Shown piece by piece: positions 94-46,386 of a stretch of DNA of 46,386 nucleotides (its first letter is position 1; each line of letters starts with the position of its first letter). A program made the translations under genes and the position numbers. The notes below the pieces were generated by a model. The model was not told where the DNA came from and did no database searches. It saw only the letters and a program-made list of their open reading frames with translations. Source of the DNA: a virus (Duplodnaviria; Heunggongvirae; Uroviricota; Caudoviricetes); IMG/VR virus record IMGVR_UViG_2913167280_000002; one strand, written 5' to 3'.

Positions 94-648
94 ATGCAAT
101 ATGGTTATGCGAGGGTGTCAACTTTTGACCAGAATTTGGAATTACAACTGGAGGCGCTCAGGAGTTCAGGATGTGACCGGATTTTTGAAGATAAAATATC
201 CGGTGCTAAATCAAAACGACCAGGACTTGATAAGCTACTGAAGGTGTTACGACCGGGCGATACGGTTATTGTCTGGAAGCTGGACCGAATGGGGCGTTCT
301 CTGATTCATCTTGTTGATTTACTTAACCATTTTTTATCAAACAACATTGAGTTTATTTCGATTACGGAAGGGATAAAAATTAGCACTTCAATTGGCCGCT
401 TTGCCTACACGATGCTGAGTGCAGTCGCAGAGATGGAGCGGGAAAATATGATTGAAAGAACGCGTGCAGGATTGGCGGTGGCAAGGGCTAACGGCAGGAT
501 AGGAGGACGCCGCTCAAAGCTGGCACCAGAGCAATGGGAACAGATCGGAAGGCTTATTGCGAATGGTGTTTCACGTAAGCGGATAGCGATTATCTTCGAT
601 GTTACCTTATCCACGCTTTACCGCAGGTTTCCGGCTGGGAATCATTGA
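94..648 (+). CDS. serine recombinase, DNA invertase (Gin/Cin/Pin/Hin family)
   Basis: N-terminal YARVSTFDQ catalytic-serine motif, resolvase core, C-terminal HTH; 184 aa; adjacent to crossover site. Confidence 0.9.
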   Translation: MQYGYARVSTFDQNLELQLEALRSSGCDRIFEDKISGAKSKRPGLDKLLKVLRPGDTVIVWKLDRMGRSLIHLVDLLNHFLSNNIEFISITEGIKISTSIGRFAYTMLSAVAEMERENMIERTRAGLAVARANGRIGGRRSKLAPEQWEQIGRLIANGVSRKRIAIIFDVTLSTLYRRFPAGNH

Positions 649-961: not shown

Positions 962-1810
962 ATGGATAGACCAATGCCGTCTCTACGTTCAGCTTACGTT
1001 TGTAATTTGTCGCCGGAGTTCCAGCCTCCAAAGCACCATACGCACAAGCTGCCGCTGGTGTTATCTGATGCTTTACAGCGCATTAATGGGCGTGATCTTA
1101 CGTGTGAGGTTGCGTTCTACGTTAATCAACCGTCAGAGCGGAAGCGCCGGATAAACGAGCATCGTCGTCGGGCGATTAATGCTGTGATCGCTGCGATTTT
1201 GCACCATGTAAACATCATTTCTAAGCGGGTTCTGGCTAGTGCTGAGGCGTTGGCTGATTTTTGCGGCCTGTCTACCGTATCCGAAGCAGGGAACAAGTCT
1301 ATAACGCGCTGTACAAGGGCGTTGTCGCAACTGAAAGCGTTAGGTTTTATTGATTATGAACGTCGCTGGGATCGGGTGAATAAACAGTATTGGCCAGCGA
1401 AAATAGAGATTCGTGATCAACTGCTGGAAACCGTTGGTATTACTGAACAAGCATGGAGACGTGCGGTTAGCCAGAAACTTAATTACTTCAATGCGAAGAA
1501 TAGCGAACGGCTTAAAAAAGCGATAACGGAGGCTGATTATAAGCGTATTGTTATTCAGGAGCAGATGGAGAATGTATGGCGTCAGAGGAAGACGGCCAGA
1601 GAGATAAAGGCAAAACAGAAAGCAGCGGAGAGAGCTGCGCGTCTTGTTCGGGAAAAGGGAGAGGCCGAACTTCGTCATCAAATCACTAGAGAGGTTAGCC
1701 AGGAATTTGCTGATGGCATGTATCCTGGAGCTGACCTTGCATATTTACGATCCCTCGTTGAGCAGCGTTATAACAGGTTAAGAAAGACCTGGAAATCACT
1801 CCAACATTAA
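962..1810 (+). CDS. repA: plasmid replication initiator RepA (IncFII RepA1 family)
   Basis: Central KSITRCTRAL...LGFIDYE region resembles the R100 RepA1 SITRATRAL...LGLITYQ signature from memory. Start at 962 (MDRPMP) chosen because the 830 start would place the antisense RNA structures inside the coding region; 830 remains possible. Confidence 0.8.
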   Translation: MDRPMPSLRSAYVCNLSPEFQPPKHHTHKLPLVLSDALQRINGRDLTCEVAFYVNQPSERKRRINEHRRRAINAVIAAILHHVNIISKRVLASAEALADFCGLSTVSEAGNKSITRCTRALSQLKALGFIDYERRWDRVNKQYWPAKIEIRDQLLETVGITEQAWRRAVSQKLNYFNAKNSERLKKAITEADYKRIVIQEQMENVWRQRKTAREIKAKQKAAERAARLVREKGEAELRHQITREVSQEFADGMYPGADLAYLRSLVEQRYNRLRKTWKSLQH

Positions 1811-1899
1811 CCCACCTGAATGATGAATCCGGTTTTACCGGAGGATTATCTACGTCGCAATAAAATATCTGTTCAAAAAACAATCTAAATTAATTTTCT

Positions 1900-2080
1900 C
1901 TAAACCTGAACACAGCAAAAATATCGCCTTTACAGGCATCGGCTAATAAAGTTATCCACAGTTTTGATATGTATATGCAAATGGTTTTTTATAATAGATG
2001 CACTAAACAAATAAATGCAAAATCACTTTCTTTTATTAAAACTTTCTTTATTTAACTTACGCAGGCTTTGCCTGTGAATA
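1900..2080. other. candidate vegetative origin (oriV) downstream of repA
   Basis: Perfect DnaA box TTATCCACA at 1952-1960 followed by ~120 bp of AT-rich sequence, in the position oriR occupies in IncFII replicons. Confidence 0.45.
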
Positions 2081-2343
2081 TGTTCGCCCTTGCAGCGAGC
2101 CAAAGCTCGCGCCGGTTCGAGTCGCTACGCTCAAATATACCTCCTCCGGCACTTGCCGGAGGCATGGAGCAGCCTGATCATCCTTTTCGAAACGGCGCGT
2201 TTCGAACTATACAAAATCAATTTATATAAGGCCGAAATAAGGCCTACGGCCGGGCTTTGCAGGAAGAAGGGGCGAGCCTTATCAATAAACGTCGATAAAT
2301 ACGCACACTGTAGCCATCAGAACGCGATAAAACGTAAGAAACA

Positions 2344-2432
2344 TCATTTCCTATTAGACATAGAAAACTTGTCTTATACGCAATGTAGTAAATTTCTATT
2401 GCCACATAGGAAAAGATTTCCTACCATCGTAG
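2344..2432 (+). repeat. three iteron-like direct repeats (ATTTCCTA...CATAG-type)
   Basis: catttcctattagacatag, aatttctattgccacatagg and gatttcctaccatcgtag directly upstream of the 2454 gene. Confidence 0.35.
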
Positions 2433-2453
2433 ATATAATAAATGGAGATGGTT

Positions 2454-2741
2454 ATGGATAAAGATACTGTTTTAAAAATGTTGAATCCGGCTTGTTTAAA
2501 AAAAGCGGATGAATGGGAATCTCCTACATGTGGAGAAGTTCGGGCAGTCATTGGCCTGACCGGAATGAGCGGCTCGCAGTTGGCCAAAAAACTTGGCTTA
2601 AAAGATAGTCGCAATGTTCGCAACTGGCAGATGTTAAAGGAGTCCACATCCAGATCCAGCATTCCGTATGCAGCCTGGGCGCTGCTGTGCTACTTCGCTG
2701 GGTTAGGGTTAATCTTCATTGATAACAAAACAGATGTTTGA
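2454..2741 (+). CDS. hypothetical protein, possible helix-turn-helix DNA-binding protein
   Basis: RBS GGAG 6 nt upstream; HTH-like segment GMSGSQLAKKLGLKDSRNVRNWQ. Confidence 0.4.
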   Translation: MDKDTVLKMLNPACLKKADEWESPTCGEVRAVIGLTGMSGSQLAKKLGLKDSRNVRNWQMLKESTSRSSIPYAAWALLCYFAGLGLIFIDNKTDV

Positions 2742-2764
2742 AACATGCAAATATGAGGTTTGTT

Positions 2765-3028
2765 ATGGAACTTGTACGCAAAACACGCAAAGAGTTCTTG
2801 GACCTGTATCGCATGGGCGCTTTCACTTGTGTTGTGGCTACCCAGGACGAAGTGACAAAAAGCTGGCGGCTTTTTGCTCTCAATAAAAAAGGGATTGCCG
2901 TTTTCATTGAAAAAGCCCGTGGTGGTATCCGCGAATGGGCGGGATTGAATTATGTGGCTGATTTTTGCGCAGCTATGGGGATTCGGCGCTGGGAAGTCCA
3001 TATGCCAGGAGTAAAGTCACAAAAATAG
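2765..3028 (+). CDS. hypothetical protein
   Basis: ORF with GAGG RBS; start chosen at third in-frame Met. Confidence 0.3.
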   Translation: MELVRKTRKEFLDLYRMGAFTCVVATQDEVTKSWRLFALNKKGIAVFIEKARGGIREWAGLNYVADFCAAMGIRRWEVHMPGVKSQK

Positions 3029-3217
3029 GGCTTTCGCGTCGAAAATAAGGCGAAACTGAAAACGAGATTTCATTAACAAATAAGCAACATAAAAAACGGT
3101 GGAAAACGCCCAGGAAAACATGATCTTTTGAGCGGATTTTTTAGATCCGACAACGAACGGTGATCCGGTGGTGCCGATAACGTCCATTATGTTAAATAGC
3201 CCCGTTTTTCTTGAAAT

Positions 3218-3263
3218 TATAACCTACGGGTTATATAGTTAGTGATATAAACTACAGGTTATA
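3218..3263. promoter_or_regulatory. two tandem operator-like palindromes (TATAACC-N4-GGTTATA) upstream of the toxin-antitoxin operon
   Basis: tataacctacgggttata (3218-3235) and tataaactacaggttata (3246-3263) immediately upstream of the toxin start. Confidence 0.4.
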
Positions 3264-3272
3264 GGATTGAGC

Positions 3273-3620
3273 ATGTGGACGGTACTTTTTAGCCAGCGAT
3301 TTGACGACTGGCTAAATGAGCAAGAAGACGCTCTTCAGGAAAAGGTTTTGGCTGATTTGAAAAAGCTACAGGTTTACGGACCTGAGTTACCCAGGCCATA
3401 TGCCGATACCGTAAAAGGTTCTCGGTACAAAAATATGAAAGAGCTTCGCGTTCAGTTTTCTGGCCGTCCGATAAGAGCCTTTTATGCGTTCGATCCGATT
3501 CGCCGGGCCATCGTTCTTTGTGCAGGAGACAAAAGTAACGATAAGCGGTTTTATGAAAAACTGGTGCGTATAGCTGAGGATGAGTTTGCAGCACATCTGA
3601 ACACACTGGAGAGCAAGTAA
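3273..3620 (+). CDS. higB: type II toxin, RelE/ParE superfamily (HigB-like)
   Basis: RAFYAFDPIRRAIVLCAGDKSNDKRFYE motif typical of HigB/Gp49-type toxins; toxin-first gene order; stop overlaps next start. Confidence 0.6.
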   Translation: MWTVLFSQRFDDWLNEQEDALQEKVLADLKKLQVYGPELPRPYADTVKGSRYKNMKELRVQFSGRPIRAFYAFDPIRRAIVLCAGDKSNDKRFYEKLVRIAEDEFAAHLNTLESK

Positions 3621-3919
3621 TGAGAACATTAGATGAGGCGATTGCCAGCCGTTCACCTGAAAGCCAGGCGCGAATTAAAGAAATGGCAGATGAGATGATT
3701 CTTGAGGTCGGCTTGCAGATGATGCGTGAAGAACTCCAGTTATCACAAAAACAGGTTGCTGAGGCGATGGGTATAAGCCAGCCAGCAGTAACAAAGCTGG
3801 AGCAGCGCGGAAATGATTTAAAGCTGGCGACATTAAAGCGTTACGTTGAAGCTATGGGAGGCAAATTAAGCCTGGATGTTGAGCTTCCCACAGGAAAACG
3901 AATAGCGTTTAACATCTGA
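3620..3919 (+). CDS. higA: HTH (XRE-family) antitoxin, HigA-like
   Basis: HTH segment LSQKQVAEAMGISQPAVTKLE; ATGA overlap with the upstream toxin gene. Confidence 0.6.
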   Translation: MRTLDEAIASRSPESQARIKEMADEMILEVGLQMMREELQLSQKQVAEAMGISQPAVTKLEQRGNDLKLATLKRYVEAMGGKLSLDVELPTGKRIAFNI

Positions 3920-3934
3920 TCAGAACGAATGATA

Positions 3935-3961
3935 AGCCCCTGTTGCAAAGGGGCTTTTTTG
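3935..3961 (+). terminator. rho-independent terminator
   Basis: Stem GCCCCT/AGGGGC followed by TTTTTT. Confidence 0.6.
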
Positions 3962-3965
3962 TGCT

Positions 3966-4082
3966 TATAGAATTATATAATTATATATTTATATAAAAAG
4001 TGCTTTACAGGTGGGAAAAAATTTCCTATGGTTATACCCGAAACCGAGCGATACCCGCCCTGGTTAAACCGGAGATAACCCG
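3966..4082 (+). promoter_or_regulatory. conserved promoter/leader module, copy A
   Basis: AT-rich octamer array, TTTACA (4004-4009), 17-bp spacer containing the GGAAAAAATTTCC inverted repeat, TATGGT (4027-4032), then a ~45-nt leader ending in GGAG-N8-ATG. Near-identical to copies B and C. Confidence 0.6.
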
Positions 4083-4463
4083 ATGAGCATGATTAAAATC
4101 CGCAAAAACGCTTTCCTTAAAATTCAAACTATCCTGGCTGGTTCTGTTGGCGTGATTTGCCGTTCTTCTTCAAGCCGCATCGATGACGGCTACGATGATG
4201 AGTATCGTGTGTCCTCGTGCGATGAGGCTTTAACCTGGCTGAAGGAGAATCAGGAACGTGCCCAGGTATATCTGGAAACAGAGAACGGCAATCAGATGTT
4301 GCGTATTAGCGGCCGTTATGGATTTGAAACTACATTCATTGCCTATTTTAATCAGGCTTACTTTGACAAGGAGCTGGCCTGGTACACTGATCGCATGATC
4401 AAAAGCGAGCCAGCCCCGATTACACCGCCGAACAATAAACCATTTTTATTCCTCGTTAAGTAA
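4083..4463 (+). CDS. hypothetical protein
   Basis: First gene behind module A; GGAG RBS. Confidence 0.45.
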   Translation: MSMIKIRKNAFLKIQTILAGSVGVICRSSSSRIDDGYDDEYRVSSCDEALTWLKENQERAQVYLETENGNQMLRISGRYGFETTFIAYFNQAYFDKELAWYTDRMIKSEPAPITPPNNKPFLFLVK

Positions 4464-4526
4464 ACACAATACGCAAAGTGTCATTTTGACACTTTGCGAG
4501 TGTTAATATTGTGCGAGGAGAATGCT

Positions 4527-4799
4527 ATGACGGGTTATGAATTGAAATTATGGCGTCGTGGGATGAACTGGACGCAGGAGCGAGCCGCCGAAGAATTTGG
4601 GATATCGTTGGCTACATATAAGCGATATGAGAAGGGGGAGCCGCCGAGGGTCATTGAGATGGCCATTCGCGTTCTGTCGTTTGACGATATGGTGAAGGAT
4701 CTTTCACACCTTGATAAAGACGCGATTCTGTTAAGGCTGCAAACCCTTGTATGGGAAAAGGTTAAAGTGTCGTCAGAATTGGAACAAGGGATCAAATGA
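4527..4799 (+). CDS. small HTH (XRE-like) transcriptional regulator
   Basis: GAGGAG RBS 6 nt upstream; HTH segment MNWTQERAAEEFGISLATYKRYEKG. Confidence 0.5.
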   Translation: MTGYELKLWRRGMNWTQERAAEEFGISLATYKRYEKGEPPRVIEMAIRVLSFDDMVKDLSHLDKDAILLRLQTLVWEKVKVSSELEQGIK

Positions 4800-4845
4800 T
4801 CCTTTACGGATCGTTTTATGGTGGTGTAATGTAAGCGCCAGAAAG

Positions 4846-4873
4846 ACAAAAACCGCCTTGCCGGGCGGTTTTC
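4846..4873. terminator. bidirectional rho-independent terminator
   Basis: Stem ACCGCC/GGCGGT flanked by an A-run and a T-run. Confidence 0.55.
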
Positions 4874-5571
4874 AGTCTGAAATTTAAATCTTGCTTGGTA
4901 GGCTGGATTTAAAAAGACACCTCTTGATTGGGGCGGCTTTCTTGCGTCTAAAGATAATCAAATCTTTTTGCGCCTGCAACCCCTTTTTTACTGGTGCCCA
5001 TTTCAGACTCACGCTCGCGTCGTTGTCTTTGCCACTTCGTTGGGTTCGGTGTTTTTGGGCGAAGTGGCGCGCGGGTATGCGTACAAGGGGAAAGTGTGCT
5101 GACGCAAGCCAGGAACAGCGATCTAAACTAAGTCGAGTCTGAGAAAGGCAGGAGTGCGACAACTCGCCTGTGCTCTATGAGCAGAAGAAGGTATATCAGA
5201 CGACCAATGGCATGATTGTGGGCCACAGGGCGCACACGGCGGCGAAGCATTGGAAACGATGTGGAGCTATCTGGTGGCATGAGTTCCGGTACTCGATCTC
5301 GAGCTTTTTTTGATGCTTTTGAGAAGGGGCCGGAACTCCGGTAAAGGGCACCCTGTATGGGGGGAGGGGGGGTTGTGTCTGAAGGGTGGTTATCGGTTAT
5401 GGTGGAATTATGATGCGTAGAAAAGCGAGTTTGCTGCAAGCTATTGGGTCCATTATTTCTTTGTTTCCGGCAGTTGATCATTTTCGTCATATGGCGACAC
5501 GTTCGAGTATGGGCTTGGCGCGTGACGCTGACGCTATTCGAAAGGATTTTCAGAAAGTCTCTGGCGTTGAT

Positions 5572-5604
5572 AAGAGAGAAAAGAGTAAGGGGCCGTAGCC
5601 CCTT
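5572..5604 (-). terminator. rho-independent terminator after the antirepressor gene
   Basis: Stem AAGGGGC/GCCCCTT; T-rich tract follows on the minus strand. Confidence 0.5.
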
Positions 5605-5608
5605 GTAG

Positions 5609-6760
5609 TTATGGTCTGCTTTTCTGTGCCAGCTTATCAGCACATGTTTTTATCAGATCCTGTAGTGTCCTGGCTGGCAGGTTTGCATCCAGAACGCTGA
5701 GTATGCTGTTGTGATCAGCTTGGTCGACTACTTTGCCTGTCGGTGGTAGTAGCTTGAGCTGAGGATTCAGGTTTTCGTCAAAGCTGATAAGTGCTCTGGC
5801 GTTTCTGAGCAGATCAAGAAGTAAGGCTGATATCACATTTTCCTGAGTCATTGCTGGCAGATTTAGCGCCGCTTTGGTTTTCCCTGTTGCCTTGTCAAAC
5901 TCCTTGATTAGTTCCTTTCTGTAGTTCGGTTCCGTTAATAGCCGATTATGCTCTGTTGCCGCGCGGATAATCGTTTTTTCCTGGTACAGTCGTTTAGCCA
6001 GATCGCGCTCGTACTGTGTTTTTAACACGCTGCTGATAGCGTTAAAGGCTTCAATGTAGGCCAGCTTGATATCTTTCACGCCTGGACCGTCGATGCTCTC
6101 CATGAGCAAGGTAAATCCGTCTTTTGTCATGCGATAGATTGTTATTTCGCGGTCGCTTCCTTCCAGCGGTCGTTGCTCTTTAAAGAAGTGACGCGCCGCA
6201 GCCGTGCGAGGAATGCGTAGCGCATCGATGGCCATAACGATGGAATTGTTTGTGGTGCTGAATGCCTGGGCAACATCGGCTGAGGTTGTGAGTGGCTCGT
6301 TGTTGCACACTTTAATGTAAAACATCGGTTTGGCGTTGAGCGTATCGACAACCTCACGAGCATTGTTTGGCGAGACGGTTACGGTCGCGGCCGTTTGCGC
6401 GTTCTGGCTGAAATAGCAGTCTTCCAGCCGTTCGAATACATCCCACGCCTGATCGGTTTCGAGCATTTTAGCGTGACGTGCAGCCCCGCGTTCTGTCCAG
6501 AGGATGAGAGAGCGAGTTTTGGGGGAAATTTGCACCTCATTTTGTGACTCGTTTAAAACTAGTCGCAAATTTTTGAGTTCATCACCAACAGCTTTAAAGA
6601 AGTGCTTCCCCTCAATGAACCGAGTTTTATTTTCATGGTGATTTTGCTGTATACGGATTGCTTCTGTTCCATAAAGGCGGGCGAGTAGCTCAGTTGTGAT
6701 TACTGGAATCTGATTATGCAGGATAGGCTGTAGGGTGTTAACGATCGGAAGCGTTTTCAT
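5609..6760 (-). CDS. phage antirepressor-like protein (Ant/Rha-type)
   Basis: 383 aa; N-terminal region resembles antirepressor/Rha regulatory domains; preceded by an overlapping small ORF as in P1 icd-ant. Confidence 0.5.
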   Translation of the reverse strand: MKTLPIVNTLQPILHNQIPVITTELLARLYGTEAIRIQQNHHENKTRFIEGKHFFKAVGDELKNLRLVLNESQNEVQISPKTRSLILWTERGAARHAKMLETDQAWDVFERLEDCYFSQNAQTAATVTVSPNNAREVVDTLNAKPMFYIKVCNNEPLTTSADVAQAFSTTNNSIVMAIDALRIPRTAAARHFFKEQRPLEGSDREITIYRMTKDGFTLLMESIDGPGVKDIKLAYIEAFNAISSVLKTQYERDLAKRLYQEKTIIRAATEHNRLLTEPNYRKELIKEFDKATGKTKAALNLPAMTQENVISALLLDLLRNARALISFDENLNPQLKLLPPTGKVVDQADHNSILSVLDANLPARTLQDLIKTCADKLAQKSRP

Positions 6761-6948: not shown

Positions 6949-7113
6949 TGTGATGATTCCCTTAAAGGTTAAGGATACTCACCACCGTCAGGTTCCAATC
7001 ATTGGGTGGTGAGACGTGCAGGGTTGGAACTACCGGACACAATGACGAACCGGCGAGTCTTACGACTCCCCCGCACGCCCCACCATAATTTGGGTGTAGC
7101 AGTGCTTTACGCA

Positions 7114-7200
7114 TAAAAAAACCGCTAACGCGGTATGCGCCATTGTGTCTACGGGGTTCCAATCCCGGCCGTAGATTTTGCTACGGCTCGGAAAGTGTCC
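7114..7200 (-). ncRNA. candidate small regulatory RNA upstream of the antirepressor operon (c4-like position)
   Basis: Minus-strand terminator (stem ACCGC/GCGGT at 7121-7134 plus T-run); hairpin 7149-7174 whose loop carries GGTTCCAAT; no ORF. Boundaries approximate. Confidence 0.3.
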
Positions 7201-7245
7201 ACCAATGGCGCATTCATGTCAATACGGCGGGATTTTAACAGACTA

Positions 7246-7263
7246 AACCACATAGTGTGGGTT
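7246..7263. promoter_or_regulatory. operator-like palindrome (ACCAC-N5-GTGGG)
   Basis: aaccacatagtgtgggtt between the divergent antirepressor region and the 7398 HTH gene. Confidence 0.35.
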
Positions 7264-7397
7264 TGAATGCGGGGCTTTTAATTTTCTTGATATGCTAAAA
7301 ACGGGAATGTATAGTTCCTGTAAGGAATCAATTAGTCCTGAGTTATGATGTTTTGTTAAAGTCGGGAACAAGAAAAAATTCAGTATGGGGATAAAAA

Positions 7398-7937
7398 ATG
7401 ATTGAACTGTCAAAAAACTCATGTTTTTCAACCATTCACCTAATGATCATAAAAGAACTTAGGCTAGAAAGAGGTGTGCATCAAGGAGTACTGGCTCAAG
7501 CTGCTGGAAAAACACCAAACGCATGGACAAAGATAGAGAACGGGCAGTCTATATTAACAGTTGACGCCCTTTTTGGTGCTTTCACAGCCCTTAATATTAC
7601 TCCAGTGAATTTCATGTCATTGGTAGAAAATCTTATTCCCGAATTTAACCGTTATGGTTACTTCTTTTTCCCTGGAACAATCAGTCAGGACGAGGATAAC
7701 CTTTTACCTCTGATGCTGCGTTACTTTAATAGCAAGGGGTTTGAAGCATTGAGAAATAGGCCATTAGAAAGAGTTAGCATTAGCTCAATGGGATTCTCAT
7801 TTGGGGGCGGCATCCCTGTTACTCCAACTGCTGTAATGTATTGTTGCGATGAAGCATATAGAAATTGGGTCGATAACGGTGCTGATGTGGATAATCGAGA
7901 TTATCTGGAGTCATCAACAGGTCGTGGACTGTTTTAA
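7398..7937 (+). CDS. HTH (XRE-family) domain protein with C-terminal domain of unknown function
   Basis: N-terminal HTH segment GVLAQAAGKTPNAWTKIENG; 179 aa. Confidence 0.5.
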   Translation: MIELSKNSCFSTIHLMIIKELRLERGVHQGVLAQAAGKTPNAWTKIENGQSILTVDALFGAFTALNITPVNFMSLVENLIPEFNRYGYFFFPGTISQDEDNLLPLMLRYFNSKGFEALRNRPLERVSISSMGFSFGGGIPVTPTAVMYCCDEAYRNWVDNGADVDNRDYLESSTGRGLF

Positions 7938-7950
7938 TGAGTGAAGAAAC

Positions 7951-7982
7951 AAAAAAACCGTCCTTTTGAGGACGGTTCTTTC
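7951..7982. terminator. bidirectional rho-independent terminator
   Basis: Stem ACCGTCC/GGACGGT with an A-run upstream and a T-run downstream. Confidence 0.6.
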
Positions 7983-8374
7983 GTGCTGATCGGATTCGCG
8001 GTCCTTTCAGCATTACGTTGTTGTATAAACAACCACGCAAGCACAAGCAGCAAGTTGATTTTACCCAAAAGGTAATAATAGTCCACTATTATGCTTCAAA
8101 AAATTGTGGTTCTTGTTGTGTCTGCAAACTCACAGATTGTGGGTAGGTTACTGATTTTGTGAAAATAAACTGGTTTTTTCGTTTAATTTATTTCCTATTA
8201 CTAATCTTAAAATAATCGTAAAATACCTGTGGACCTTCCCGCCGATTCGCACCCGGGCACCGACTTTAGGGGAGGATTTCCTGTTGCCGTACATGCAAGC
8301 ACAAGCAGCCGTGCTTGCTCTCGCGTTGTTTTCGTCGGTGGGGATGCCGTGAAACGGCCTGTAAGGGCCATACA

Positions 8375-8497
8375 ATGAAAAAATACTGTATGTGTATTTT
8401 TATCGTTGTTACTGGGGCTTTGTTTACGCCACATGGGGAGGGTTGGAAGATTACTGATAACGCTCTGAATGTGACGATAAACATTAGCAGCAAGTAG
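8375..8497 (+). CDS. candidate small hydrophobic peptide (40 aa)
   Basis: MKKYCMCIFIVVTGALFTPHG...; AAGGG about 8 nt upstream; ends just before the terminator at 8503. Speculative. Confidence 0.25.
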   Translation: MKKYCMCIFIVVTGALFTPHGEGWKITDNALNVTINISSK

Positions 8498-8502
8498 CGA
8501 TT

Positions 8503-8526
8503 AGGCCCCTTCGGGGGCCTTTTTTA
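8503..8526 (+). terminator. rho-independent terminator
   Basis: Stem AGGCCCC/GGGGCCT, loop TTCG, then TTTTT. Confidence 0.65.
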
Positions 8527-8535
8527 TGGTTGAAT

Positions 8536-8718
8536 TTAAACGCTGGAGCGCATTAAGCCTTTCAGAACTGCTTCACGTACCCATTCTGGCCTGGTGGATA
8601 GCAGGGCAAATAAGCGACCAGCTTGCAGCCGTTTGAGGTCGGTTAGACGAGTTTTCAGTAACCGTGTATATTGTTTCTCGGACATAACAAATTCCCCTTG
8701 TTGTGTCGCGACGGCCAA
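8536..8718 (-). CDS. hypothetical small protein
   Basis: ORF downstream of the partition genes on the same strand. Confidence 0.3.
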   Translation of the reverse strand: MAVATQQGEFVMSEKQYTRLLKTRLTDLKRLQAGRLFALLSTRPEWVREAVLKGLMRSSV

Positions 8719-8747
8719 CAGTTGGCGCTGGAGGCCGTCACCTTCTC

Positions 8748-8996
8748 TTACTTCTGGTTGTATTGAGCCTTGAGTAACTCAAAAGACTTTGTCAGCACTT
8801 CTTTCAATGACATATCCATTGAGCTGGCGAACGTTTTGTACTCGCGTTTAAATTCAGGGTCGACGTTAAACGCCATTTGTGCCCCACCTGATTTGGTTCT
8901 GGTTGGCGTTTCAGTCGGGTCGAAAACCTGCGGTTGTTCGATCGATGGCGGTACGCCTTTGCTGTTCTTCTTTGGTGGTTTTGATGGTGCGGCCAT
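8748..8996 (-). CDS. ribbon-helix-helix centromere-binding protein (ParG-like)
   Basis: 82 aa, basic flexible N-terminus then RHH-like MAFNVDPEFKREYKTFAS...; AGAGGGGA RBS; directly downstream of parA. Confidence 0.55.
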   Translation of the reverse strand: MAAPSKPPKKNSKGVPPSIEQPQVFDPTETPTRTKSGGAQMAFNVDPEFKREYKTFASSMDMSLKEVLTKSFELLKAQYNQK

Positions 8997-9039
8997 GTGT
9001 ATCCCCTCTTATATAAATCTATAAAACTATAATTATATA

Positions 9040-9693
9040 TTACGCGGCAGTAGTCAGAGCCTCAAGCTGGTTGATAATCCCCTGAATAACGTCGTCTGCC
9101 TTTTTGCGTGGCGCAACGTATGAGCACTCAATGAGGCTTAAGCCCTTATCCTGAGCTTTGCTCAGAGCTGGCTTGTGGGGAATGTACTTATCGACAACAA
9201 AGTATGGCGTATTAGCCAGGTACTCTTGGGCTTCGATGTAGTCAGCTTCGTTTTCAGCCGCGCCGGAAAACACCATGCAAATTTTCTTGATTGGTACGCC
9301 CTTTTTAACGATGCCGTGAGCAGTGTTAACGGTGGTTTCAAGGTCATCGGTAGAGAATCGGGTTGGCAAAATAACCATATCCAGAAATTCAGATAGCTTC
9401 GGTACTGATTCAGATGCGTAGGCACCGCCATCAACGATAACCAGGTCGTATACTTCTGATTCGATGATTTTCTGGACTTGTGATGGCGTGCCGCACGGCT
9501 GCGCCGCGATTGCAGGTTCGATATTGTTGGCCATTCTGCGTTGTACCCAACGCGTTACCGTTCCGTTAAGCACATCCATATCGATCAGGCATACATTCCA
9601 GCCAGCCTTTGCATAAGCAACTGCTAAAGCACGGGCAATGGTTGATTTGGTTACGCCGCCTTTTCCGTTGAAAATACCTACAGATATAGTCAT
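9040..9693 (-). CDS. parA: partition ATPase ParA (small type Ib)
   Basis: Deviant Walker A GKGGVTKST; about 217 aa; GGAG RBS before the second in-frame Met. Confidence 0.8.
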   Translation of the reverse strand: MTISVGIFNGKGGVTKSTIARALAVAYAKAGWNVCLIDMDVLNGTVTRWVQRRMANNIEPAIAAQPCGTPSQVQKIIESEVYDLVIVDGGAYASESVPKLSEFLDMVILPTRFSTDDLETTVNTAHGIVKKGVPIKKICMVFSGAAENEADYIEAQEYLANTPYFVVDKYIPHKPALSKAQDKGLSLIECSYVAPRKKADDVIQGIINQLEALTTAA

Positions 9694-9714
9694 TTGTCGA
9701 GACTCCATGTGTTT

Positions 9715-9825
9715 GATTATATAATTCTATAAATCTATATTTATAGAATGAGGTAAGCATAACCAACTTTTGAGCGGATGAAAAGCACTTTATATAATTA
9801 TATAAATCTATAATATTTAAGCGGG
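9715..9825. repeat. AT-rich octamer arrays upstream of parA (candidate centromere and promoter)
   Basis: Two clusters of TTATATAA/TTATAGAT-type units. Confidence 0.4.
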
Positions 9826-9904: not shown

Positions 9905-10216
9905 TTAGAGCAGCTTCTGAGCGGTCGCTAAGAGGGGGTTTTCATCGAGAATCATGAGGCATACAGAAATAATAGCCCTGTTATATGCCATCAATGGCTG
10001 GCACAGCTTCGATACCGCTGGCACATCGTATTGTAAGGCCGTTTTGAGGCAGACTTTTTGTTCTGATGCCAGATGAAGGATAGATTCTATCCAGTCGATA
10101 TCTTTCTCATTATCAATGATTTGGCATAACATACACTCAATCGCTATGTTCAACGCTTGGATTTCGATTCCAGCAGTGATCAGAGTTTCGTTTTTATTGG
10201 CTGTATGTAATTCCAT
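9905..10216 (-). CDS. hypothetical protein
   Basis: AAGAGG RBS 6 nt upstream of ATG at 10216; operator palindrome about 35 bp upstream. Confidence 0.35.
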   Translation of the reverse strand: MELHTANKNETLITAGIEIQALNIAIECMLCQIIDNEKDIDWIESILHLASEQKVCLKTALQYDVPAVSKLCQPLMAYNRAIISVCLMILDENPLLATAQKLL

Positions 10217-10250
10217 GCGTAGCCTCTTGTATACTTTCACATGTTGTCAA

Positions 10251-10267
10251 AACCACAAAATGTGGTT
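10251..10267. promoter_or_regulatory. operator palindrome AACCACAAAATGTGGTT
   Basis: Perfect 17-bp palindrome between the repressor stop and the next minus-strand gene. Confidence 0.45.
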
Positions 10268-43330: not shown

Positions 43331-44451
43331 CGTTGCCGCGTGGTGGTTTGCCAGATATTACTTTCGCAGATTCTAACCCGACTGATATAACAACTCGTTC
43401 AATCAGGGCTTTTGAGAGTATAACAGGTGAAACATTAGCACCTGCTGATCCACGTAGATTATTCATCTTATCATTGTGTGAGATTATTATACAGCAAAGA
43501 AAAGCTATCGATTTTTCTGCAAAACAAAACCTTCTTACATATGGTGAAGGTGAATATCTCGACCATATAGGCTATCTGACGGATACGCCTAGGTTGGAAG
43601 CTCAATCTGCCTTGACTACATTTGAGTTTAATCTGTCAACAAAATTATCGGGGATATATACAATACCTTCTGGCACTCAAGTTTCAACTGGAAATGGTGT
43701 TATTTTCCAAACAGATGTTTTGTTGGAAATACCTGCTGGGAAAACAGTTGGTACAGTCTCAGGATATGCTGTTATACCTGGTTTATCGGGGAATGGCTTT
43801 TTACCAGGGCAAATAAATGAGTTGGTGACTCCGTTGCCGTATGTTTCCAGCGTAAGGAATCTAACAACATCTAATTCTGGTGCTGATACAGAGTCAGATG
43901 ATAATTATGCTGAAAGAATAAAACTGTCGCCGGAAAAACTGTCTACAGCAGGGCCGGAGGATTCTTATAAATATTGGACAAGAACAGCCAATCAGAATAT
44001 AAAAGATGTGAATGTATATACACCATCGCCCGGAACTGTAGAAATCCGTTCTTTGTTAGAGAACGGAGATATACCTTCTGATGAACTATTGGAGCAGATA
44101 AATAGCGTTCTCTCTGCAACTAATATTCGACCATTCACAGATAAAGTTCTTGTTAAGAAACCAGAGAGCATTGAATACGATATAATAATTAAATACTGGA
44201 TTAACTCATCGGACAAAAACAGAACAACATTAATTCAAAGTGAGGTTGAGAAAGCTATTGATGAGTATAAACAATGGCAACGTTCGGTTATGGGAAGAGA
44301 TATAAATCCAGATGAAATTATTCAACGTTTAAAAAATGCCGGGGCTAAAAGATTAGAAATATCAAGTCCTGTATTTACTGTGGTTGGAGAGACGCAGGTC
44401 GCCAGAGAGAGAAATATAAATTGCCAGTATGCGGGGTTAGAGGATGGCTGA
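43327..44451 (+). CDS. baseplate J-like protein
   Basis: 374 aa in the baseplate cluster. Confidence 0.6.
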   Translation: MTLPRGGLPDITFADSNPTDITTRSIRAFESITGETLAPADPRRLFILSLCEIIIQQRKAIDFSAKQNLLTYGEGEYLDHIGYLTDTPRLEAQSALTTFEFNLSTKLSGIYTIPSGTQVSTGNGVIFQTDVLLEIPAGKTVGTVSGYAVIPGLSGNGFLPGQINELVTPLPYVSSVRNLTTSNSGADTESDDNYAERIKLSPEKLSTAGPEDSYKYWTRTANQNIKDVNVYTPSPGTVEIRSLLENGDIPSDELLEQINSVLSATNIRPFTDKVLVKKPESIEYDIIIKYWINSSDKNRTTLIQSEVEKAIDEYKQWQRSVMGRDINPDEIIQRLKNAGAKRLEISSPVFTVVGETQVARERNINCQYAGLEDG

Positions 44452-45025
44452 TATCTTTAATGTTAGCTTGTTGGATGTTTTACCTCCTAACTTAGCTAGA
44501 GATCCCAACGTGATAGCTATGTCGAAAGCTATCGATGATGAACTACAAGCAATTAATAATTTAATATATAAGACAGAAATATATAGCGTTGTTGATAACC
44601 TGGACTCAGTTGTTCTCGATCATTTAGCCTGGCAATGGAATGCTGATACATGGAGGGATAGTTGGCCTGTATCGTTAAAGCGTTCTGTTTTTAAATCAAT
44701 AATACGAACAAAGCGAATAAAGGGTACAAGGGCAGCGGTTGAAGATGTAGTAAATAGCTTGGGTGGAGAGGTAAACATAACAGAATGGTTTGAAACATCA
44801 CCACCTGGCGAACCATATACAGCCTCAATTGTTGCTTCGATTAACTCTTTTGATGGTGCCGTTCCTTCGAAAGAGATGTTGGAAGATACGTTAAGAAGTA
44901 TCAAGAGCGCAAAGTCGGCAAGAACATTATTTACATTTTCGCAAGCTGCCAATGTTTCTGGTGGTGTTGGTATTGTTGGTGCTTGTCAGCCTGTGTCCTA
45001 TGTACGATTAATTGGCGAGTGCTAA
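44444..45025 (+). CDS. tail protein (P2 gpI-like)
   Basis: 193 aa immediately upstream of the tail fibre gene. Confidence 0.5.
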   Translation: MADIFNVSLLDVLPPNLARDPNVIAMSKAIDDELQAINNLIYKTEIYSVVDNLDSVVLDHLAWQWNADTWRDSWPVSLKRSVFKSIIRTKRIKGTRAAVEDVVNSLGGEVNITEWFETSPPGEPYTASIVASINSFDGAVPSKEMLEDTLRSIKSAKSARTLFTFSQAANVSGGVGIVGACQPVSYVRLIGEC

Positions 45026-45055
45026 TTCGCAATTTGTTAATTCAAGGAATTAAGC

Positions 45056-46386
45056 GTGAGTAAATTATTATTTACGATGACTGACGCCGGGCGTCAGGAG
45101 TTGGTTAATGCCAACAAAACAGGAACAAATAAAGTTGAGATTGTTTCTGTTGGTTTAGGTAGTAGATATTATGTCACGTCAACCTCACAAACAAATATAA
45201 CAGACGAAATAAAACGACTTACCACAATAGGTGGCAAAGTTGTTTCCCCTGATACAATTCATGTAACGGCGAAGGATGATAGTAAAGATGAGTATGTTGT
45301 CCATACAATAGGATTGTATACAAATAAGGGAACGTTGTTTGCTGTATACTCGCAAGAACAAGCAATAATAAATAAAGCATCATCTACTATTGCTTTAATA
45401 TCAAGTGACATAGCAATCAAGACTCTTGATACTAAAAATATTACATTTGGTGATATTGAGTTTATTAATCCTCCCGCAACCGAAACTGTTGTTGGGGTAG
45501 CAAGATTTGCCAATGAACAAGAAATTGATGCAGGTACAGATGATTCCCTTGCTGTTTCAGCAAAGCGGCTTAAGCAAGCCATTGTGAAACATGAGCAATC
45601 ACGTAATCATCCCGATGCTACTTTAACCTCAAAAGGCTTTGTTCAACTTAGCAGCGCCACCAATAGCTCGTCTGAAACGCTTGCTGCGACGCCTAAGGCT
45701 GTTAAGGCAGCATATGACCTTGCTAACGCTAAATACACCGCACAGGACGCTACCACGGCGCGAAAAGGGATTGTTCAGCTCAGTAGCGCAACTAACAGCG
45801 ATTCTGAAACGCTTGCTGCGACGCCTAAGGCTGTTAAGGCAGCATATGACCTTGCTAACGCTAAATACACCGCACAGGACGCTACCACAGCGAAAAAAGG
45901 GATTGTTCAGCTCAGTAGCGCCACCAACAGCACGTCTGAAACGCTGGCTGCGACACCAAAAGCTGTTAAGGCGGTAATGGATGAAACGAACAAGAAAGCG
46001 CCCTTAAACAGTCCTGCGCTGACCGGAACACCAACAACACCAACTGCGCCAAAAGGTACTAACAATACTCAGATCGCAAGCACGGCTTATGTTATGGCTG
46101 CGATCGCTGCCCTCGTGGATTCGTCGCCTGATGCACTGAATACGCTGAACGAGCTGGCGGCTGCGTTGGGCAACGACCCGAATTTTGCGACCACCATGAC
46201 TAACGCGCTTGCGGGTAAGCAACCTAAGGATGCCACCCTGACGGCGCTGGCTGGGCTTGCTACTGCGGCAGACAGGTTTCCGTATTTTACGGGGAATGAT
46301 GTCGCCAGCCTGGCAACTCTGACAAAAGTCGGGCGGGATATTCTTGCGAAATCGACCGTTGCCGCCGTTATCGAATACCTCGGTTT
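45056..46386 (+). CDS. tail fibre protein, constant N-terminal part (P2 gpH / Mu S-like), 3' end truncated by the window
   Basis: GTG start after AAGGA; N-terminus P2 H-like; ...ASLATLTKVGRDILAKSTVAAVIEYLG conserved junction reaches the window end with no stop. Not in the ORF track (no stop; GTG start). Confidence 0.8.
   Translation, partial: MSKLLFTMTDAGRQELVNANKTGTNKVEIVSVGLGSRYYVTSTSQTNITDEIKRLTTIGGKVVSPDTIHVTAKDDSKDEYVVHTIGLYTNKGTLFAVYSQEQAIINKASSTIALISSDIAIKTLDTKNITFGDIEFINPPATETVVGVARFANEQEIDAGTDDSLAVSAKRLKQAIVKHEQSRNHPDATLTSKGFVQLSSATNSSSETLAATPKAVKAAYDLANAKYTAQDATTARKGIVQLSSATNSDSETLAATPKAVKAAYDLANAKYTAQDATTAKKGIVQLSSATNSTSETLAATPKAVKAVMDETNKKAPLNSPALTGTPTTPTAPKGTNNTQIASTAYVMAAIAALVDSSPDALNTLNELAAALGNDPNFATTMTNALAGKQPKDATLTALAGLATAADRFPYFTGNDVASLATLTKVGRDILAKSTVAAVIEYLG
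45636..45980 (+). repeat. tandem ~120-bp (40-aa) coding repeats in the tail fibre gene
   Basis: About 2.7 copies of KGIVQLSSATNS.SETLAATPKAVKAAYDLANAKYTAQDATTA; in frame and protein-coding. Confidence 0.8.
46368..46386. promoter_or_regulatory. Gin/Cin-type crossover site, truncated at the window end
   Basis: TTATCGAATACCTCGGTTT is the inverted counterpart of the left-end site core AAACCGAGG; 19 of about 26 bp present. Confidence 0.7.

Follow-up and report, generated by a model that had tools for sequence, protein, structure and literature searches.

A tail-fibre gene cut at a gix-like crossover site and its probable continuation on the invertible segment of a phage-plasmid

Why should a tail-fibre gene run, without a stop codon, off the end of a viral contig at the very point where a DNA inversion site begins? 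The question is raised by IMG/VR record IMGVR_UViG_2913167280_000002, a stretch of 46,386 nucleotides (nt) from a virus of the Caudoviricetes that we analysed over its whole length (hereafter, the window). Its fibre open reading frame (ORF) starts at GTG 45056 and continues for 443 codons to the window end without a stop, the last full codon finishing at base 46384 of 46386, just as an initial annotation made from the sequence alone had read it. Our answer, which we consider very probable, is that the window holds the constant 5′ part of a fibre gene of a phage-plasmid, that the receptor-binding half of this gene lies on an invertible segment of ~3 kilobases (kb) absent from the window, and that the two window ends result from a break in assembly.

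Paired crossover sites and a serine invertase

The final 19 nt of the window (46368-46386, + strand) match gixL of phage Mu, and comprise the outer half-site TTATCGAATACC, the core dinucleotide TC (46380-46381) and GGTTT of the inner half-site. Set against gixL, which reads TTATCCAAAACC-TC-GGTTTACAGGAA, the window end (TTATCGAATACC-TC-GGTTT) breaks off 5 nt after the core TC, leaving 19 of the 26 nt of this left crossover site. The initial annotation had proposed that the last codons of the fibre gene (...IEYLG) overlap a truncated crossover site, and this match bears the proposal out. A site at the window end is by itself no proof of inversion, because gene H of phage P2, a fixed gene, contains nearly the same sequence in frame (TTATCGAATATCTCGGTTTACAGGAA, encoding IEYLGLQETV). 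The missing proof is supplied by the window itself, which has an inverted partner site within its first 29 nt and an invertase gene at 94-648. The partner, which the initial annotation had not mentioned, was found by motif search and is complete (4-29, + strand; TTCCTGTAAACC-GA-GGTTTTTGCGAA, with core GA at 16-17, in the orientation opposite to that of the left site). No other match with three or fewer mismatches occurs in the window, shuffled sequences lead one to expect 0, and the site occupies the same position in Yersinia phage vB_YpM_39; bases 1-15 of the window are the final bases of the invertible segment. There are thus two inverted sites of 26 base pairs (bp), each with 12-bp half-sites and a 2-bp core, of which the left one is cut by the window end and both are complete in relatives.

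The invertase gene (94-648, + strand) is intact and begins 65 nt beyond the right crossover site; its transcription leads away from the segment. Its 184-residue product is a serine DNA invertase of the Gin/Cin/Pin/Hin type, as identified by Pfam (Resolvase PF00239, E = 2.6e-44; HTH_7 PF02796, E = 2.9e-13), by match to the Gin structures 3uj3 and 4m6f over residues 2-181 (E from 1e-60 to 1e-62; 8.8e-62 for 3uj3) and by PHROG 125, “DNA invertase”. It is 54% identical to Gin and 55% identical to Cin, and the alignment shows conservation of the RVST motif, in which enzymes of this family have their catalytic serine. Within the gene, region 112-183 (+ strand) occupies the position equivalent to the annotated recombinational enhancer of P1 Cin (nt 19-90 of cin), as judged from the P1 annotation and an ungapped alignment. 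Its identity is 61% to P1 and 65% to Mu, figures that are confounded by coding constraint since the region overlaps conserved coding sequence; by analogy with these systems it may act as an enhancer and make inversion dependent on Fis.

Taken together, these elements suggest how the switch would work. The constant fibre consists of an N-terminal domain that would attach to the baseplate, a series of 44-residue Phage_fiber_2 repeats with a stretch resembling P2 H, Mu S and P1 S, and the in-frame 26-bp gix-like site, while the absent ~3-kb segment would carry two alternative receptor-binding C-termini on opposite strands, each with its own assembly chaperone. The invertase encoded at 94-648 would exchange strands at the 2-bp core (TC/GA) of the inverted sites and so flip the segment. 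As in other members of the family, the reaction may need Fis together with an enhancer near the 5′ end of the invertase gene. Each flip would fuse the constant part in frame to one or other C-terminus, and the resulting population, being mixed, would have two host ranges. The corresponding mechanism of the Mu G segment is summarised in PMC4406740.

The invertible segment in related elements

The closest relatives of the window are the Yersinia phages vB_YpM_39, vB_YpM_41 and vB_YpM_44, which are circular, 49 kb long and 97-99% identical to it at both window ends. Further close relatives are found among many circular plasmids of ~48-50 kb from E. coli, E. albertii, E. fergusonii and Klebsiella aerogenes; the plasmid of E. 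coli ATCC 25922 (48,488 bp) is one of them. DNA identity to relatives is 96-98% across the tail, fibre, invertase and replication regions, and the crossover sites are the same. The records of the three Yersinia phages and of the ATCC 25922 plasmid differ from the window in that they include the invertible segment.

These genomes supply the sequence that should adjoin the cut fibre gene. Wherever a close relative has kept the crossover site, its fibre ORF reads through ...IEYLG directly into LQETVN... and on into a segment of 2.7-3.1 kb, which carries Sv and tfa on one strand and tfa′ and Sv′ on the other, and which is followed by the serine invertase. The order in vB_YpM_39, for example, is a 784-residue fibre (IEYLG followed by LQETVNQ), a Caudo_TAP chaperone (+ strand), a second chaperone (- strand), the gp37_C C-terminus Sv′ (- strand), the inverted site and the invertase; across relatives, full-length fibres with the same start have 741-840 residues. 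Since the window plus ~3 kb equals the size of its relatives (49,027 bp for those of the vB_YpM_39 type, against 46,386), the window corresponds to a whole element minus its invertible segment. The earlier suggestion that the variable C-terminus of the fibre lies on a missing invertible segment is therefore supported by the segments of relatives together with the partner site and the invertase of the window.

Inversion itself can be seen by comparing relatives. Plasmid p25POL-A (NZ_CP081011.1) and the ATCC 25922 plasmid (NZ_CP009073.1) are 100% identical over 2-kb flanks on both sides of a 3,068-bp segment which, between the same two records, is 29% identical when compared directly and 100% identical as the reverse complement. 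One A/G difference in an inner half-site moves with this segment, which places strand exchange at or outside the core. Junction-specific searches further divided the assemblies of ATCC 25922 (Seattle 1946) between both orientations. Two records hold both orientations at once: NZ_CP032086.1 (94 kb; 94,204 bp) and CABEEY010000004.1 (77 kb), whose two copies of the element carry 3,045-bp segments that are exact inversions of each other. In both cases long reads seem to have captured a dimer or concatemer. The two orientations are thus observed in relatives, not in the window's own source, which we would expect to carry and invert its segment in the same way.

The segment may not be intact everywhere. 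In the relative JE86-ST02_p3 (NZ_AP022814.1, locus 7050-9720) the annotation marks the variable part as partial or frameshifted, and the fibre ends at 463 residues, just past the site, reflecting either decay of the module or sequencing errors.

Contig ends and competing explanations

The window is one of several records that break off here. The exact 35-mer at its end is carried by 43 contigs of IMG/VR; three contigs terminate 5 nt past CCTCGG and another begins inside the right repeat. In a chromosome-level scaffold (OU349839.1, locus 5314-5340) a run of N begins exactly at the crossover site, with a second copy of the site 600 bp further on. Most likely the window ends where it does because assembly broke off at an inverted repeat, the interior of which occurred in the sample in both orientations; recurrent breaks at the inverted repeat fit a population of mixed orientation that defeated the assembler.

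Several observations weigh against our interpretation. The segment is absent from the window, and its presence here rests on the relatives, the two sites and the invertase. The site preference of that invertase, which is 54-55% identical to Gin and Cin, is assumed, and the enhancer-equivalent region is just 61-65% identical to P1 and Mu. The window ends are also asymmetric, lying 5 nt and 15 nt inside the core, an asymmetry that would not obviously follow from a simple break in a de Bruijn graph. The cut points coincide with the first differences between the inner repeats (A/G at +6 in the ATCC 25922 plasmid, G/A at +16 in CABEEY01); a simple assembly model that we tried did not yield the asymmetry, and this coincidence stands as an observation only. 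Finally, some relatives with the same N-terminal fibre domain lack any site and have a fixed, 948-residue Stf-like fibre. At four loci (L002, L011, L013 and L014) the fibre has two repeat units, no crossover site and a fixed form of 934-948 residues resembling lambda Stf, so the switch module is exchangeable rather than universal in this element family. At L002, the only one of the four that is annotated, the fibre is followed by one chaperone and then by a serine acetyltransferase gene.

On one rival reading, for which these fixed fibres speak, the site is a relic and the fibre of the window runs into a fixed C-terminus, with no inversion taking place. P2 provides the precedent, in that its H gene has the site in frame (IEYLGLQETV) and is followed in the annotated stretch by gene G, without an invertase gene, a statement that applies to that stretch only, in which a partner site was not searched for. 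P2 as a whole is not known to carry an invertase. The window, however, has both an inverted partner site and an intact invertase 65 nt beyond it, and close relatives with the same two sites occur in both orientations, which makes a relic barely credible here.

A different account of the missing C-terminus would make the window a complete circular molecule that has lost the segment, leaving a truncated fibre and a defective phage. This would explain why both ends fall at segment borders; joining the ends gives an ORF of 443 + 29 residues before a stop, and JE86-ST02_p3, with its decayed variable part, has a fibre of 463 residues. Invertases acting on inverted sites nevertheless invert and do not delete, the joint of GGTTT to CGTTTCC (...CCTCGGTTT running into CGTTTCCTG...) is no recombination product of the two sites, and the 29 added residues are junk. 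That related contigs stop within a few bases of the sites, in one scaffold at an N gap, points to assembly instead, and we consider a deletion highly improbable. We hold an equally low opinion of the idea that the window lacks a larger segment with multiple sites and three or more fibre cassettes, as is reportedly the case for the Min system of plasmid p15B. The great diversity of C-terminal fibre cassettes among relatives and the three site-like sequences in one record (L072, the OU349839.1 scaffold) would suit such an arrangement, but every close relative examined has two sites separated by 2.7-3.1 kb, the window plus ~3 kb fits their 48-50 kb, and the third site of L072 abuts a run of N that marks a scaffolding gap. 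The constant fibre part of a two-orientation switch, with its segment dropped in assembly, accordingly remains by far the most probable reading of the window.

Mosaic fibre, tandem repeats and known switches

The constant, Sc-like fibre part (45056-46386, + strand) was identified from its translation, three matches to Pfam Phage_fiber_2 and PHROG tail-fibre families. Its GTG start is preceded at a distance of 6 nt by AAGGAA (45044-45049, + strand), a Shine-Dalgarno-like motif read in the sequence; the ATG 21 nt past the GTG, at 45077, which is used as the fibre start in some Prokaryotic Genome Annotation Pipeline (PGAP) annotations of relatives, has no such motif. Homologues of P2 baseplate and tail proteins precede the gene (GPD, V, GpU, W/gp25, Baseplate_J and Tail_P2_I), the last of these, the gpI homologue, lying directly upstream (44444-45025).

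The fibre is built from two parts of different composition. Its first ~175 residues (45056-45580, + strand), delimited by PHROG, Pfam and BLASTP comparisons, form a domain specific to this element family with a G+C content (GC) of 37%, whereas the remainder (45581-46367, + strand), recognised by GC and by DNA and protein alignment as a shaft resembling P2 H, Mu S and P1 S, has 52.5%, and the window as a whole has 44%. The sharp GC junction at ~45580 marks the point at which a P2/Mu/P1-type shaft and switch module has been grafted onto a family-specific anchor. The initial annotation had described the N-terminus as P2 H-like, and this holds in the sense of a remote domain family but not of a close likeness. 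BLASTP of residues 1-185 against the P2 H N-terminus gave short marginal matches only (best E = 0.004 over 18 residues) and Pfam PF12571 scored 20.7 bits, below its 23-bit threshold; the fibre and P2 H N-termini both match PHROGs 381, 988, 4618, 295 and 3737 at corresponding N-terminal profile positions. On the strength of this PHROG comparison, the sequence evidence identifies the domain as a remote homologue of the P2 gpH N-terminal domain, while the PHROG matches of the Mu S N-terminus are disjoint from those of the fibre. Its position after the gpI homologue suggests that it attaches the fibre to the baseplate. The fibre shares with P2 gpH both a PHROG 381-type N-terminal domain directly after a gpI homologue and PF03406 shaft repeats. 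The close match to P2 H lies instead in residues 176-443, with 208 identities over 268 alignment columns and a single gap of one 44-residue unit, which arises because P2 H has two repeat units and this fibre three; at the DNA level identity is 87.7% from 45763 to the window end.

Tandem Repeats Finder reported one strong array in the fibre gene (45631-45972; period 132, 2.6 copies, 89% matches, score 551), and a second repeat search gave three in-register 132-nt units (100%, 89% and 67% identity). Combining these searches with Pfam and translation, we define three tandem Phage_fiber_2 units of 132 nt, or 44 residues (45632-46027, + strand), beginning at residues 193, 237 and 281 and matched three times by PF03406 (E = 1.6e-62). 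The array agrees in coordinates and copy number with that of the initial annotation, which had given the unit as 120 nt and 40 residues. The protein pattern of the unit is KG[FI]VQLSSATNSxSETLAATPKAVKAAYDLANAKYTAQDATTA[RK]; DNA identity between units 1 and 2 is 89%, and unit 3 keeps the first ~81 nt (~27 residues) and then diverges. Two further features of this region, a 112-residue ORF in another frame (45639-45977, + strand) inside the array and an 81% inverted repeat, I1 (44956-44981 and 46029-46054), made of GGTGGTGTTGG-like low-complexity sequence, look like by-products of the repeats and of composition.

The initial annotation had suggested that repeat number may vary between relatives, and it ranges from one to four among the loci that share the fibre N-terminal domain. 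One unit is present at locus L010; two are present in the four fixed Stf-like fibres and in the incomplete or truncated genes at L009 and L012; three are present in the window, pHN68-3 and JE86-ST02_p3. The fibre of vB_YpM_39, like others, differs from that of the window in having three units with a last spacing of 56 residues, and those of the ATCC 25922 plasmid and CABEEY01 differ in having four. Units 2 and 3 of the four-unit allele are 99% identical, a degree of similarity that indicates recent duplication. In-frame unequal recombination between the 132-nt repeats may have expanded and contracted the array and so varied shaft length among relatives. In the P1 record (NC_005856.1, locus 10087-10254) two elements are annotated within the constant part of gene S, “repeated element a1” of 132 bp and “a0” of 36 bp; a1 has the period of the window repeat, and 36 nt is the extra length of the vB_YpM_39 allele over that of the window.

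The element that carries this fibre is a myovirus-type phage-plasmid of ~49 kb, as follows from the combination of replication and partition genes with virion genes and from the existence of relatives both as circular 48-50-kb plasmids and as isolated phages. Protein scans located an IncFII-type RepA (830-1810) adjoining the invertase, a layout shared by the E. coli plasmids, and a ParA-type ATPase (9040-9708); terminase and portal proteins of lambda type and baseplate genes are also encoded. No integrase was found among the window ORFs scanned, and a 382-residue ORF (5609-6760) considered as a candidate proved to encode an ORF6N/Rha protein. Membership of the pSLy3 phage-plasmid group was rejected, that group being part of the SSU5 supergroup and composed of different elements, and a literature search found no paper describing the ~48-kb element family or vB_YpM_39, vB_YpM_41 and vB_YpM_44. 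The exact 184-residue invertase protein occurs in 2,331 blocks of a public collection, the longest contig carrying it being 20-50 kb in 856 and 2-5 kb in 994; these counts suggest that the element is very common and is often fragmented in short-read assemblies.

Of the known switches, the G segment of Mu (Gin; S/U versus S′/U′) is similar in that its constant fibre part ends in a 26-bp site within the reading frame, that the inner half-sites (GGTTTACAGGAA) are identical and the core is TC/GA, that the invertase lies beyond the right site and is transcribed away, and that a ~3-kb segment, which the relatives of the window also have, carries two fibre C-termini and two chaperones. The window differs from Mu in its invertase (54% identical to Gin), in 2-4 positions of the outer half-sites, in an N-terminal fibre domain of P2 H rather than Mu S type (with no shared PHROG matches), in the length of the constant part (443 residues against ~170 in Mu) and in belonging to an element that replicates as a plasmid, unlike the transposing Mu. 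The C segment of P1 (Cin) is likewise an invertible fibre segment on a phage-plasmid, has the 132-bp a1 repeat in the constant part of S and is 93-95% identical to the segment content in parts. P1 differs in that cin is located on the opposite side and transcribed in the direction of the segment, and in that the cix core is of AA/TT type (CCAAGG / CCTTGG) with a different inner half; the invertase of the window is 55% identical to Cin, and the P1 genome, of 94.8 kb, has another replicon and other tail genes. P2 shares the V-W-J-I-H-like gene order, the N-terminal domain family and the IEYLG-LQETV sequence, but has two repeat units rather than three and a fixed fibre gene followed by a single assembly gene, G.

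The sites differ little from gix, and the segment is in parts 93-95% identical to the C segment of P1. Crossover sites could therefore conceivably serve as exchange points at which co-resident phage-plasmids, and prophages with invertases of their own, swap fibre cassettes or fuse replicons through intermolecular recombination or homologous exchange; separately, one to four repeats may tune fibre length. We regard these proposals as speculative and unlikely. In a 137-kb contig (L068; GCA_018023475.1, ABABOT010000011.1, locus 1690-6555) a P1-like cin and cixL are joined through a shared fibre-cassette segment to the right site and invertase of the element. This hybrid more likely arose in assembly, as a chimera formed across a repeat common to two co-resident phage-plasmids, than as a real recombinant or cointegrate.

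An invertible fibre switch is of a kind long known from phages Mu and P1, and the present one is ordinary, involves no new mechanism and belongs to an element family already abundant in public databases. Its consequence for the gene with which we began is that this fibre would not be biologically truncated; its receptor-binding half would lie on a segment that flips and that tends to be lost or wrongly joined in assembly. In annotating this common family of E. coli phage-plasmids one should expect broken contigs, fibre genes marked as “partial”, and differences in orientation within the assemblies of one strain. The assemblies of ATCC 25922 constitute a natural example of active switching, and could serve to measure the rate of inversion in a plasmid prophage and the bet-hedging of its host range.

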